Positions 13,546 to 19,182 of a stretch of 40,713 nt of DNA are shown here, in pieces; position 1 is the first letter of the stretch, and each line of letters starts with the position of its first letter. The notes beneath the pieces were generated by a model that did not search any database, was not told the origin of the DNA, and was given only the letters and a program-made list of their open reading frames with translations. This DNA is from a bacterium (lineage in GTDB: Bacteria > Sysuimicrobiota > Sysuimicrobiia > Sysuimicrobiales > Humicultoraceae). Location: assembly GCA_041497675.1 (NCBI GenBank), contig JBGQGY010000018.1, forward strand, positions 1-40,713, read 5' to 3'. Position numbers and translations under genes: made by a program.

Positions 13546-14877
13546 TCAACACGCGACCGAGAACAGATGCCACTCGCCGGACACGCCTTTGAGCCCGTGG
13601 ACTCCTCGATCTTCGAATTGGATACCTGACCCGGCCACGAGATCTTTGACCGTGCTGGAGACCAGGACTTCACTCGCGCCGGCGTAAGCCGCGACACGCG
13701 CGCCGATATGGACGGCGATCCCGCCGACTCTACCACCCATCACCTCGCACTCGCCCGTGTGCAGCCCGATGCGGACCTCGATCCCAAGCGCCCGGACGGC
13801 AGCGACGATCTGGCACCCGCAGCGGACGGCCCGGGCAGGCCCATCGAATGTCGCAAGAAACCCGTCGCCGGCCGTGTCGATTTCGCGCCCGAGGAACCGA
13901 ACGAGTTCCCGGCGCACCACCGCATAGTAGCCATCCAGCACATCTCGCCACCGCCGGTCGCCGAGTTGAGACGCGCGCTCCGTCGACCCGACGATATCGA
14001 TAAACATGACTGTCGCGAGGACGCGATCCGGTTCGGGCCCACGTCGCACCCCGGTCAGGAACTCCTCGATCTCATCGAGCATTGTGTCTTGATCACCGAC
14101 CCACGGCAGGTGGTCATCTCCGGGAAGTTCTACATACTTGGCGCCGGGGATCTGCCGGGCCATGTATCGCGCATGCTCGGCACTCAAGGTGCGGTCACCC
14201 GTGCGATGGACAATGAGCGCGGGTACACGGATCGTCGGGAGGACGTGCCGTACGTCAATAGCGGCGTTCATCCGCGTGAGGGCGAGCGCAGCGCCGGGAC
14301 TGGTGCTCATTCGTAGATACCTGGCCCACCAATCTTTGAAGCGCTCGTCGTGTACCATGCTGGGTGCGCGACCCGCCAGCCCGACGGGGCCGCCCCATCC
14401 GTCGCGGATCTCCTGCATGAATTGCTCATGCACGTTCTCAGTCGGCGCGAATGTGTAGTCGGGCGCCCAGAGCCTCCTCGCGTAAGCGCCAACCATGATC
14501 AAGGCCGTCGTCCGCTCGGGGTAGGTGGCCGCAAAGAGCGCGCACATCGGCCCGCCCTCGGAGATGCCGATGAGCGCGGCCCGCGGCGACCCCACGGCGT
14601 CCATCACCGCGCGGACGTCGTCCATCCGCTGCTCCAGCGTTGGCAACTCGGTCTCGGGAACGCGATCGGACAATCCGGTGCCCCGCTTATCGAAGAGGAT
14701 GAGGCGGGTAAACGAGGCGAGGCGGTTGAGAAATCGCGCAAACGAGGGCTCTTCCCAGAAATAGTCCAGGTTGGAAACCCAGCCCATGACGAAGACCAGG
14801 TCGAGTGGGCCGTTCCCGACCACCTGGTAGGCGATGTTGACGCCGCCGCTCTTCGCATACTTCGTCTCGGGCTGCAT
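13546..14877 (-). CDS. alpha/beta-hydrolase-class III nucleotide cyclase fusion (LipJ/Rv1900c-like)
   Basis: FDKRGTGLSDR, GISEGG nucleophile elbow, DDHLPW; then VMFIDIVGST, AGDGFLA, RIGLHTGE, VHIGARV, VLVS. Confidence 0.92.
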   Translation of the reverse strand: MQPETKYAKSGGVNIAYQVVGNGPLDLVFVMGWVSNLDYFWEEPSFARFLNRLASFTRLILFDKRGTGLSDRVPETELPTLEQRMDDVRAVMDAVGSPRAALIGISEGGPMCALFAATYPERTTALIMVGAYARRLWAPDYTFAPTENVHEQFMQEIRDGWGGPVGLAGRAPSMVHDERFKDWWARYLRMSTSPGAALALTRMNAAIDVRHVLPTIRVPALIVHRTGDRTLSAEHARYMARQIPGAKYVELPGDDHLPWVGDQDTMLDEIEEFLTGVRRGPEPDRVLATVMFIDIVGSTERASQLGDRRWRDVLDGYYAVVRRELVRFLGREIDTAGDGFLATFDGPARAVRCGCQIVAAVRALGIEVRIGLHTGECEVMGGRVGGIAVHIGARVAAYAGASEVLVSSTVKDLVAGSGIQFEDRGVHGLKGVSGEWHLFSVAC

Positions 14878-14929
14878 TGCCGCGGTTCTTCCCCGTGCCG
14901 GTACAAACTCCTGGATGGGCCAGGATCTC

Positions 14930-14970
14930 AAAAAACGACTCAGGGCGGGTGTGTACCCCCGCCCCGAGCG
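14930..14970 (-). terminator. Rho-independent terminator after the repeat-peptide gene
   Basis: Minus strand CTCGGGGCGGG-GGTACACA-CCCGCCCTGAG stem (11 bp, one G-U) followed by TCG-TTTTTT. Confidence 0.8.
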
Positions 14971-14989
14971 ATCTGTCTATCCCCCGTCG

Positions 14990-15205
14990 TTACGCCGACC
15001 GCACGTCAGCCGGCAGCGCCTCATCCGTGATCTCCGCCGACCGCACGTCAGCCGGCAGCGCTTCGTCCGTGATCTCCGCCGACCGCACATCGGCCGGCAT
15101 CAACTGGTCCTCGTTGGCGATGGACAGCCCGCCGGTCGGAACCGGCAGCCACGCCGCGTGCACGAGCAACCCCACCAGGGCAACCAGTGCGATCTTCTTA
15201 TTCAT
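14990..15205 (-). CDS. 71-aa secreted peptide with three (L/M)PADVRSA repeats; putative signalling or RiPP-type precursor
   Basis: MNKKIALVALVGLLVHAA signal-like N-terminus, GGAGG RBS 8 nt upstream, downstream terminator, synonymous differences between repeat copies. Confidence 0.8.
   Translation of the reverse strand: MNKKIALVALVGLLVHAAWLPVPTGGLSIANEDQLMPADVRSAEITDEALPADVRSAEITDEALPADVRSA
14993..15100. repeat. 42-bp tandem repeat, about 2.6 copies, within the peptide gene
   Basis: Units start at 14993, 15035 and 15077 (cgccgaccgcac...). Units 1 and 2 differ at 2 positions. Confidence 0.95.
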
Positions 15206-15310
15206 CGTAGTCGCCTCCGCCTTCGGTTTTGTGTTTCCCTGCGCTCCGAACACCCGTTGTTCATCTGACTGTCACTGTACGCGGGTCTCCGGAGGGCCAC
15301 GATGGCGGGC

Positions 15311-16032: not shown

Positions 16033-17313
16033 CTAGCGGCGACCGACGAGCAGCGGCAGGATGTCGATCCCTCGAAGGTGACCCAGCGCGCCACGCGCGG
16101 CCTCGGCTTCGGTGAATCGACCGGCGTGATCGGCCGGTGTCCCGGCGCCGGCGACCAGCAACGGCACCGGGTCGGCTGAGTGACCGCGTAGTTCGCAGGG
16201 TGTGGCGTGATCCGCGGTCACCGCGATGAGCGTCGTGGGGAGATCGAGCGCCAGGAGCAGGGTGCCGAAGAAGTATTCGTCGATCTCTTGGATCACGCGG
16301 CGCTTCGCCTCGGCGTCGCCGTCGTGCCCGGGCTCATCGGGCCCCTTCAAGTGCAGATACAGACCATCGTACTGCGGCAGCACCTCGACCGCGCGCCGCG
16401 CCCATCCCCGGTAGATCTCCGCGCGCGTGGCCGAGGCGCTGTGCGGCACTTCGACGACGCCCATGCCCAGGTACCGGGCGATGCCGCGCTCGACAGGCAT
16501 CTCGACGAAGCACCCCAACGTGACCCCGAAGCGCTCGCGCATCGACGGCACCTGCGGGATGTGGTCACCCGCGTCACGGACGAGGATCAGGTTGCCCGGC
16601 GGCTTGCCGGCGGCCTTGCGGGCGGCGTTCACGGGATGAGCATCGAGGATCGCGCGGCTCCTGTCGGTGAACTCGTTGATCAGCGCCGCGGCGGTCCGCG
16701 CGCCCGGTGAGTCGTCGAGCGGCGCGCACTCGACGACTTCCTCTTTGAACGTGGGCAGCGCCACCCCGAGCCCGCCGACCCGCGCGTACGCCGGATCAGT
16801 GTTGGACACCTGGCCGCTCAGACGTCCCTGCGTGGGATAGAAGACGACCGCACAACGGTATCCGATCGACGACGCGACGACGACCCGCGCGGGTGAGGTC
16901 TCCAGTCGGATCTGCTGCGTGACCGCATCGGCAAGCGCGCGGGCTTCTTCAGACAGCAGATTGCGGCCGACGCGACGATCGAGGATCTTCTTGCCATCAC
17001 CACCGGTGGCGAAGTTGCCACGCAGAGCCAGATCGCCGTCTTTGAACTCGATCCCGGCGCCCAATGCCTCAAGCGGCCCGCGGCCGGCGTGGTAGATCGT
17101 GGGGTCGTAGCCAAGGATCGCCGTGACAGCGACGTCGGACTCGGGCGCGATGCCCTCGCCAACGGTGGTGACCAGCGCCTGCTGACCCGCCGCCGCAAGC
17201 CGATCGAGGTGCGGCGTACGCGCCGCGGCGAGAGGCGTCCGTCCGCCCAGGGCTGCGACCGGCCGGTCGCCGAGACCATCAAGGATGACGTAGAGAATCT
17301 TCGCGCGACTCAT
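16033..17313 (-). CDS. apgM: cofactor-independent phosphoglycerate mutase, ApgM/archaeal type (alkaline phosphatase superfamily)
   Basis: ILDGLGDRP, TPL..A.TP.LD, PESDVA (phospho-Ser), GRGPLEA, ALRGNF, HLKGPDEPGHDG, TADHATP, HSADPVP; ATGA overlap with the GNAT stop. Confidence 0.9.
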   Translation of the reverse strand: MSRAKILYVILDGLGDRPVAALGGRTPLAAARTPHLDRLAAAGQQALVTTVGEGIAPESDVAVTAILGYDPTIYHAGRGPLEALGAGIEFKDGDLALRGNFATGGDGKKILDRRVGRNLLSEEARALADAVTQQIRLETSPARVVVASSIGYRCAVVFYPTQGRLSGQVSNTDPAYARVGGLGVALPTFKEEVVECAPLDDSPGARTAAALINEFTDRSRAILDAHPVNAARKAAGKPPGNLILVRDAGDHIPQVPSMRERFGVTLGCFVEMPVERGIARYLGMGVVEVPHSASATRAEIYRGWARRAVEVLPQYDGLYLHLKGPDEPGHDGDAEAKRRVIQEIDEYFFGTLLLALDLPTTLIAVTADHATPCELRGHSADPVPLLVAGAGTPADHAGRFTEAEAARGALGHLRGIDILPLLVGRR

Positions 17314-17798
17314 GCGCCCTCCGTCAGATTGAGACGATACCCCTTGATGGTGACGTCCTTCCCAGGATGGAAGTCGAGATCGGGAGCGCGGACAAAACCC
17401 ATCCGTTCGTACATACGCATCGCCACGGCCATGATCTCGTGGGTGTGCAGCGTGAGCACCGCCGCCCCGGACTGCCGCGCCCGCCGGACGCATTCGCGCA
17501 TCAGCGCCGCCCCGACGCCCTGACCGCGCGCGGCCGGCGCGACGGCCAGCAGGCGCAGTTCGGGCCATGCCAACGTGCCCGCAGGGTACAACAACACGGT
17601 ACCCACAATGGCGCCGTGCTGCTCGGCCACAATCTGTTCCGCCGGCTTCACATCCCCGAGGGTGGTCAGAATATTGCGCCGGTAGCCCTCCCAATGCGTC
17701 TGCATCACGGCCGCATACTGTTGATAGGCCGACAACGTCACGTCCCTGATGATCTCACGATCACCGTCACGCGCATCGCGGACGATCACATCCTTCAT
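17310..17798 (-). CDS. GNAT family N-acetyltransferase
   Basis: LAVAPAARGQGVGAALM (motif A), LHT, A..MYERMGF; ATG at 17798 overlaps the upstream stop (ATGA). Confidence 0.9.
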   Translation of the reverse strand: MKDVIVRDARDGDREIIRDVTLSAYQQYAAVMQTHWEGYRRNILTTLGDVKPAEQIVAEQHGAIVGTVLLYPAGTLAWPELRLLAVAPAARGQGVGAALMRECVRRARQSGAAVLTLHTHEIMAVAMRMYERMGFVRAPDLDFHPGKDVTIKGYRLNLTEGA

Positions 17799-18544
17799 CG
17801 GCGCGCCGGTTGTGTGCGCGCGGCTCCCTGCCGGCTCCGCGCGTCCAACGCGGCCTTGAGATACGCGACAATGAGGGGATGCGCCACGCCGGGGCGGGAT
17901 GTCAGCTGGGGCAAGAACAACGTCGCAACGAAGAAGGGATGGCCGCGTAACTCGACGATTCGGATCTCCCCGTCGGCGCCACGCCCGGTCGCCACCATCG
18001 ACGCTCCCAAGATCCGCTCGCGGAATGTCGGGTTGAGCCCAAAGTTGCAATGATAACTCTCCCGCGCCTCGCGGGTCCCGTACGCCACGTGCGCCAAAGA
18101 ACCCGGCGCGATCTGGATGGTCTCGGACTGTCCCACCAGCGAACATGCCAACTGCGTGATCACCAACTCGGCCGCATGAGGAGAGGTCTCTTCGTGTTCA
18201 GCGTCGCGGATCCCCAGGACGTTCCTCGCATACTCTACCAGAGCATGCTGAAAGCCCCCTCAGGTTCCGACAAACGGCCGGCCCCGCTCGCGGGCAAAGC
18301 GAATCCCATTGAGCGCACCGTTCATACTCTTGTAGGGGCTGCCCGGCGATGCCCAGATCCCGTCCGCGTCGTCCAGCCGCCGTTCCGCCGCAGGACCCTC
18401 GAGATCTTCTGTCGGGATCCACGCGATGTCGACGGTGTGATCCAGCGCGGCAGCGGCGTGTGAGAGGGCATCATTTGTCGGCACGTGCGTCGGTGACGCC
18501 GGATTGAAATCACCAATGATCGCGATACGCACGTGTTCCTGCAT
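17795..18544 (-). CDS. stand-alone CTP-synthase glutaminase-like (class I GATase fold) protein with in-frame UGA at the nucleophile; candidate selenoprotein, 249 aa, Sec95
   Basis: One frame from ATG 18544 (GGAGG RBS) to TGA 17795: IAIIGDF, DGIWASPGSPY, IRFARE..RPFVGT-[TGA 18262-18260]-GGFQHALVEYARNVLG, HPFFVATLF. SECIS-like hairpin follows the TGA. Confidence 0.82.
18228..18248 (-). promoter_or_regulatory. putative bacterial SECIS element
   Basis: mRNA GCAUGCUCU-GGU-AGAGUAUGC, a 9-bp stem (one G-U) starting 11 nt after the UGA, with a G-first apical loop 20 nt from the UGA. Confidence 0.72.
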
Positions 18545-18607
18545 CGTGCCAGCCTCCGGGGTGTACGTTGGTCCCCGATCTCTTCGCTGTTTGGCCTGTG
18601 GGTTCTT

Positions 18608-18979
18608 CTACGCGGGTGCGTAGCGCACGCCCGGGACCCCTTGGAAGTCCACATCCTGAGTCCAGAGCAGTGCGTCGTGTGTCCTCGCAGTGGCCAGCAT
18701 GATACTGTCGGCCATTGGAAGCCTCAAGTCGGCGGCCAACTTCGCGGCGTTCAAGGCGATAGATGTGGTGAGATCGACCACAACGCCCTGCTGCATGACG
18801 GCTACCGCCCTCAACGCCTGGCTCTCGTCGCGCTGCTGGAGGACTCGCTTGAAGACTTCGTACAGACCGATGGTAGGTACGATGAGGACGCCGGGCTTTT
18901 CGATCGCGGGCGCAAAAAACGCGGCGTTCTTGCCGTTCGCAAAATACTCCAACCACCCCGATGAGTCGACGACATTCAT
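18608..18979 (-). CDS. vapC: type II toxin-antitoxin PIN-domain toxin (VapC family)
   Basis: VVDSSGWLEY, PTIGLYEV, LPMADSIMLATA, LWTQDVDF acidic PIN residues; 123 aa. Confidence 0.92.
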   Translation of the reverse strand: MNVVDSSGWLEYFANGKNAAFFAPAIEKPGVLIVPTIGLYEVFKRVLQQRDESQALRAVAVMQQGVVVDLTTSIALNAAKLAADLRLPMADSIMLATARTHDALLWTQDVDFQGVPGVRYAPA

Positions 18980-19182
18980 ACCCGGTCGGGTTCCCGCTCG
19001 ACGGTTGTGTCGATACCCTTGAGAAAGCCCCGCGCGCGTTTGATCGGCGTGAGTGGGATCAGTTCAATACGACCGTCGTACGGGATGACCTGGACCTTCT
19101 GCCCCGGTCGGATCCCCAGCGCCCGCCGGACCCGAGCCGGAATCACCACCTGGTACTTGGGTGAGACAGTAGCGGTCTCCAT
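18976..19182 (-). CDS. AbrB/MazE/SpoVT-family antitoxin
   Basis: VSPKYQVVIPARVRRALGIRPG swapped-hairpin motif; ATGA overlap with the toxin. Confidence 0.92.
   Translation of the reverse strand: METATVSPKYQVVIPARVRRALGIRPGQKVQVIPYDGRIELIPLTPIKRARGFLKGIDTTVEREPDRV

Follow-up and report, generated by a model that had tools for sequence, protein, structure and literature searches.

Predicted selenocysteine at the nucleophile elbow of a stand-alone glutaminase-fold protein, family NF004836, that lacks the catalytic histidine

The window (the whole stretch of bacterial DNA that was analysed, 40,713 nucleotides) carries on its reverse strand a gene of 249 codons whose only internal stop is an in-frame TGA at codon 95 (Table 1). 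The list of open reading frames gives this gene as two pieces, 18260-18544 and 17795-18166. Translation from 18544 to 17795 placed both in one shared frame, separated by the TGA alone (...RPFVGT*GGFQHALVEYARNVLG...), as the original prediction had described. Neither half of the gene matched a Pfam family when searched alone, in line with the expectation that gene callers would split it, and a correct annotation of such a gene is the practical gain of this analysis. The gene's terminal TGA and the start codon of the following gene, which encodes a GNAT acetyltransferase, share bases in the sequence ATGA (17798-17795); from this arrangement the GNAT gene is probably translationally coupled to the selenoprotein gene, and a functional link between the two is only putative. 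A scan for promoters and terminators returned nothing informative at the selenoprotein gene.

Table 1. Positions of the read-through gene, its sequence features and the adjoining GNAT gene in the window
Feature	Position	Strand	Evidence
Shine-Dalgarno-like GGAGG, 8 nt 5' of the ATG	18553..18557	-	sequence
Read-through gene, NF004836 protein, 249 aa	17795..18544	-	translation, profile score, predicted fold
In-frame TGA, codon 95, predicted selenocysteine in the nucleophile elbow GTUGGFQ	18260..18262	-	sequence, alignment, contigs
Bacterial SECIS-like hairpin, 9-bp stem, 3-nt GGU loop, codons 99-106	18228..18248	-	folding, codon analysis
Cys134, family-specific, 238/240 homologues	18143..18145	-	conservation
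Cys166, replacing the His of the CTP-synthase RHRYE motif, 240/240 homologues	18047..18049	-	conservation
Leu211-Pro212-Gln213, replacing the catalytic His-x-Glu	17906..17914	-	alignment, conservation
GNAT acetyltransferase, ATG overlapping the terminal TGA of the selenoprotein gene	17310..17798	-	sequence, Pfam

The surrounding reverse-strand genes were also inspected. The stretch 16033-17798 holds the GNAT gene and a second gene whose product exceeded the TIGR00306 cut-off, a cofactor-independent phosphoglycerate mutase of the apgM type; ATGA overlaps link both in a chain to the selenoprotein gene. Because of this chain, translation of the GNAT and the mutase may hinge on whether the UGA is read through, and thereby on how much selenium is available. 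At 18608-19182, immediately upstream of the selenoprotein gene, an AbrB/MazE-type antitoxin gene (Pfam MazE_antitoxin, 43.6 bits) is followed by a PIN/VapC toxin gene, and this pair is an ordinary type II toxin-antitoxin. A short ORF at 14877-15250 contains three near-identical repeats (PADVRSAEITDEAL).

The read-through protein scored 331.7 bits against the NF004836 profile (cut-off 260), covered model positions 1-227 of 228 and contained the GxUxG motif with one Sec as GT-TGA-GG at codons 93-97. It also matched Pfam GATase (31.1 bits, cut-off 22.8). A CTP synthase identity was rejected: the 249 codons between the PIN gene and the GNAT gene encode a stand-alone protein without a synthase domain, and the score against TIGR00337 (PyrG), 136.5 bits with only model positions 288-526 matched, is far below the cut-off of 462.75. 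The genome's true PyrG is an intact, full-length and separate gene on contig C21, and its glutaminase domain is 36% identical to the read-through protein. An AlphaFold model of the latter (pLDDT 96) found its best fold match in the glutaminase domain of human CTPS2 (Z 32.3, rmsd 1.9, 233 residues). The next nearest folds after CTP synthase were gamma-glutamyl hydrolases and other class I amidotransferases. Foldseek likewise matched CTP synthase glutaminase domains, with a TM of about 0.87. The modelled protein has the class I glutamine amidotransferase fold with a nucleophile elbow. The original description of a protein resembling the CTP synthase glutaminase domain was thus borne out, as was its placing of the UGA at the catalytic cysteine, for in alignments codon 95 falls on the nucleophile Cys both of the genome's own PyrG (GICYGMQ) and of the solved CTP synthases. 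Homologue searches returned 4469 and 7753 matches among 8000 candidates, which may include other glutaminase-domain proteins, and an ESM Atlas search with a Cys homologue (P0003) as query returned only clusters named as CTP synthase or as NF004836. The NF004836 family has thousands of homologues and is routinely mislabelled as CTP synthase.

We consider it very likely, on computational prediction, that the UGA is recoded as selenocysteine in a member of NF004836. The original prediction had named four findings that would speak against selenocysteine, namely a TGA confined to this assembly, a genome without the Sec genes, relaxed selection downstream of the TGA and a global reassignment of UGA, and the claim survived all four. 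The genome (98.6% complete) has selA, selB, selC and selD. Profile searches scored selA at 536.6, selB at 361.5 and selD at 393.6 bits, all over cut-off; selA adjoins selB on contig C24, and tRNA-Sec(TCA) is on the same contig. The selD gene (G000:C39:15011-15934, L005) has an in-frame TGA of its own where the catalytic residue is encoded (CAG*ASK), with a predicted hairpin after it, and is itself predicted to encode a selenoprotein.

The gene family was over cut-off in three of the 41 genomes searched in the same order, the window's genome included (one of the 41, G010, is unpublished and had PyrG only), and all three carry the TGA. A wider genome scan gave 22 further loci, and the codon was readable in 21 of them (8 TGA and 13 Cys; L058, with no alignment across the column, was left out of the tally). 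The proposed tabulation of Cys against TGA at codon 95 therefore stands at 11 TGA and 13 Cys in 24 readable loci, with Chloroflexota and Thermodesulfobacteriota among the other TGA carriers. TGA alleles co-occurred with Sec genes as expected. The 10 other TGA genomes all had at least one of selA and selB over cut-off (each gene in 8, both in 6), against 7 of the 13 Cys genomes (both genes in these 7, neither in 6); these counts come mostly from MAGs of unknown completeness, include close relatives that are not independent of each other, and draw on one unpublished Cys genome (G055/L051). Conservation was as high downstream of the TGA as upstream, with amino-acid identities between TGA alleles of 49-60% and 47-59%, respectively. 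Downstream pN was 0.27-0.34 against a pS of 0.67-1.0 (0.023 against 0.184 in the closest pair), and purifying selection acts on this part of the gene. In the databases, the column was occupied by Cys in 234 of 240 homologues and by Trp in 5 of 120 (P0002, P0004, P0006, P0010 and P0033); the Trp entries probably come from TGA alleles to which gene callers applied code 4. One Cys allele, from a Verrucomicrobiota MAG (L052, ~4620), has a stop at column 211 and is probably a pseudogene or an assembly error.

The stem of the hairpin that follows the UGA starts eleven bases after it and the loop 20 nt after it. The published bSECIS model describes a loop of 3-9 nt with G in its first two nucleotides, a stem of 4-16 bp, a spacing of 16-37 nt and an MFE of -7.5 or lower (PMC13188914), and the hairpin agrees with all four as given there (GGU loop, 9 bp, 20 nt, -12.2 kcal/mol). 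Its stem uses codons that are rare in the genome (GCT 6%, GTA 5%), and equally stable folding was reached in only 7 of 5000 synonymous recodings. Where seven TGA alleles were compared at codons 100-105 and had the same residue, the codon was also the same, in 103 of 103 comparisons; outside these codons the same alleles had 961 of 2442 identical (39%), and codon identity among Cys alleles was 137 of 304 (45%). The seven-allele set excludes L043 and L057, near kin of L042, as well as L009 and L010, two TGA alleles with a different type of hairpin (-7.5 and -11.8). Eight to nine of the stem pairs form in 9 of the 11 TGA alleles versus 1 of the 13 Cys alleles. Two results weigh against the hairpin: compared with dinucleotide shuffles, the wider region after the UGA gave a weak signal (z -0.9, -1.2 and +0.6; z -2.2 for a 51-nt piece), and the stem showed no compensatory covariation because it is nearly invariant. 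The hairpin is under selection. From established SelB biology, SelB bound to it would deliver Sec-tRNA to codon 95, and the product would be a stand-alone protein of 249 aa that has the fold of the CTP-synthase glutaminase and carries Sec in its nucleophile elbow.

Two other explanations of the stop codon were weighed against recoding. A nonsense mutation that left a pseudogene would need one base change (TGC to TGA), and a patchy, dispensable gene is suggested by its presence in only 3 of the 41 genomes of the order. However, contigs from four of four further sequencing runs bridged codon 95 with no other letter at 18260-18262, a check that used contigs and not raw reads and excluded two possible source runs, and an assembly error at these positions was rejected. 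The same TGA also stands in 10 other genomes, those of Chloroflexota and Thermodesulfobacteriota among them, and both the purifying selection downstream and the constrained SECIS argue against decay. We regard the pseudogene or assembly-error explanation as largely refuted and highly improbable. A genome-wide reading of UGA as Trp or Gly (code 4 or 25) could draw on the W found in five of 120 database homologues, but it is refuted by stop-codon usage: TGA is the commonest stop and ends 848 of 1688 long ORFs. In addition, RF2 is present and over cut-off, the sole tRNA with a TCA anticodon was called as tRNA-Sec, and tRNA-Trp reads CCA, so that the chance of reassignment is negligible. A related strain differed at 10 sites, 6 of them non-synonymous and none at an invariant residue. 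A search for signs of expression found no usable RNA run, the only two listed sharing 0.06-0.07 of the words.

The history of the Sec and Cys alleles was followed on a tree of 69 rows (24 loci, 44 of the first 120 proteins, and PyrG) with the test column masked. The window gene falls in a supported clade of 22 rows, 14 of them TGA or W; the 16 rows counted as TGA on the whole tree include the five database proteins with W, which were assumed to be TGA. The Sec/Cys label needs 7 changes on this tree, 5 of them forced by starred branches, and Sec and Cys have therefore interchanged repeatedly; a single origin of Sec is not supported. All 11 TGA alleles are within the F[LV]PQ branch. FLPQ was considered as a mark of Sec alleles and rejected, since the motif F[VLI]PQ runs through the entire branch, in Cys alleles too. 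L009 (G032) and L010 (G038) come from the same order as the window's genome, and stand apart from the window gene's clade, on another branch and with their different hairpin, which suggests that the gene, or Sec, was acquired separately there.

The class I glutaminase triad is Cys-His-Glu, represented in E. coli by Cys 379, His 515 and Glu 517 (PMC9138612). The read-through protein does not have this triad, with Leu211 and Gln213 in the places of His and Glu. We compared it with 240 homologues: the 120 top matches to the window protein, plus the 120 top matches to a protein from the family's other branch. His was absent from the triad column in all 240 (V, L, I or Q instead) versus present in 28 of 28 PyrG controls, and the Glu column held Q in 115 of the 120 in the window protein's branch and E in all 120 of the other. 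Sec is no simple compensation for the lost His, because the Cys forms also do without it. Three other histidines, His20, His100 and His117, were conserved in 239, 237 and 236 of the 240 homologues, and Gln99, Glu104 and Glu119 are common to the family and the 28 PyrG controls. In class I amidotransferases, the RHRYE strand and the equivalent of Glu119 line the substrate pocket, and so Cys166 should lie near residue 95. We take the RHRYE motif to be the site that holds Arg 468 and Arg 470 of the E. coli enzyme. These two arginines contact GTP (PMC9138612).

With these replacements, the active site looks rebuilt. The notion of a Sec nucleophile in an amidase, which the original prediction had put forward as unusual, is correct as to the fold; amidase chemistry itself is not established for a protein whose catalytic His is missing here and in all 240 homologues. 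Together with the near-invariant Cys134, Cys166 and three histidines, this absence makes a "selenium amidase" doubtful.

Gene context was rejected as a clue to function, since it is not conserved and indicates no substrate. No neighbour family was shared across the 24 loci, except among three closely related Anaerolineae and in one close pair; the 31 neighbour genes chosen belonged to unrelated Pfam families only, and annotated records from Klebsiella, Methylobacter and Streptomyces had unrelated surroundings. GNAT genes are neighbours at the window locus, L038 and L042, and three of the best 120 homologues are fused to GNAT, each with a different Pfam set. Fusions and neighbours together make a weak functional lead. 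The fused homologues P0020, P0076, P0117 and P0054 carry three different GNAT domains and one DinB_2 domain. In a Chloroflexi MAG, a TGA allele lies between hisG-hisD and an aminotransferase gene (L039:2038-5880), in what looks like a histidine biosynthesis cluster; the other loci lack this arrangement.

The protein is not a CTP synthase and, from its residues, probably not a canonical glutaminase. A canonical glutaminase that stands alone and supplies a separate synthase with ammonia would fit the name "glutamine amidotransferase (COG0504, PyrG)" that appears in print (PMC12013277) and the Pfam GATase match. It is nevertheless unlikely, given the triad His in 0 of 240 homologues, the lack of a conserved partner gene across the 24 loci and the intact full-length PyrG that the genome already has. 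An amide or thioester hydrolase, or a gamma-glutamyl transferase, in which Sec is inserted, the role of the triad His passes to His20, His100 or His117 and the extra cysteines serve a structural purpose, is possible but on balance doubtful. The fold, the nucleophile elbow and the Gln99, Glu104 and Glu119 shared with all 28 PyrG controls fit such an enzyme, as do the gamma-glutamyl hydrolases and class I amidotransferases among the nearest folds beyond CTP synthase, and GNATs, as fused domains in 3 of 120 homologues or as adjoining genes in the window and L042, could hint at acyl chemistry. However, the three fused GNATs differ in their Pfam sets and GNAT genes are very common, the triad Glu, too, is gone from the branch (F[LV]PQ) to which all 11 TGA alleles belong, and two near-invariant cysteines are left unexplained.

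We lean, at slightly under an even chance, towards a thiol/selenol site in which Sec95 and Cys166 and/or Cys134 would cycle redox states or bind a metal, acting on a small amino-acid-like or electrophilic substrate. The wider proposal, that in NF004836 a glutaminase scaffold has been turned into an enzyme of thiol/selenol redox chemistry or metal binding, in which Cys and Sec have switched repeatedly inside the branch now devoid of the triad Glu, with two SECIS types, is a tentative one that falls noticeably short of even. Some other function has a small chance. Should residue 95 (Sec or Cys), Cys166 and Cys134 make up a redox or metal site, a textbook fold would have acquired new chemistry and the use of selenium would be explained; the family would then again conform to the rule that most selenoproteins are redox proteins. 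If the site has indeed been rebuilt, the Sec alleles would be markers of an active site of a kind new to the class I amidotransferase fold.

The suggestion that the family might be unreported did not hold, for NCBIfam and two papers already include it as a predicted selenoprotein. A review tabulates NF004836 as a selenoprotein with the motif GxUxG and one Sec, citing deep-Sep (PMC13188914). The deep-Sep paper lists "glutamine amidotransferase (COG0504, PyrG)" among its new selenoproteins and gives both TGA and Cys homologues and a SECIS-like structure for it; the support presented there is computational prediction, and the published Sec example is from Desulfosediminicola ganghwensis (PMC12013277). 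The window gene is thus a predicted selenoprotein of an already catalogued family, its Sec prediction is not new, and as a selenoprotein discovery it matters little. What this analysis adds is the lack of the catalytic His in NF004836 and the fixed extra cysteines. The passages on the family in the two papers do not mention either (PMC13188914; PMC12013277). A literature search that covered only the smaller part of subscription journals returned neither point, nor any work on the family's activity, a glutaminase assay or the missing His.

Comparison with known systems places the protein as follows. SelD of the same genome is unrelated to it and serves only as an in-genome control for UGA recoding; like codon 95, its in-frame TGA is at a catalytic position and precedes a predicted hairpin. 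The PyrG glutaminase domain (TIGR00337; PDB 2vkt, 1vco and 1s1m) is similar in fold, nucleophile position, Gln99, Glu104 and Glu119. In contrast to PyrG, the protein has no synthase domain and has Sec instead of Cys, Leu-Pro-Gln in place of His-x-Glu, HCNFG in place of RHRYE and PGSPY in place of the PGFG oxyanion/lid loop. As far as the published accounts describe it, the NF004836 selenoprotein agrees with the window protein in its full-length match, one Sec in GTUGG, stand-alone form, hairpin right after the UGA and many Cys homologues; the source genome is a different one, and at the family level the two do not differ.
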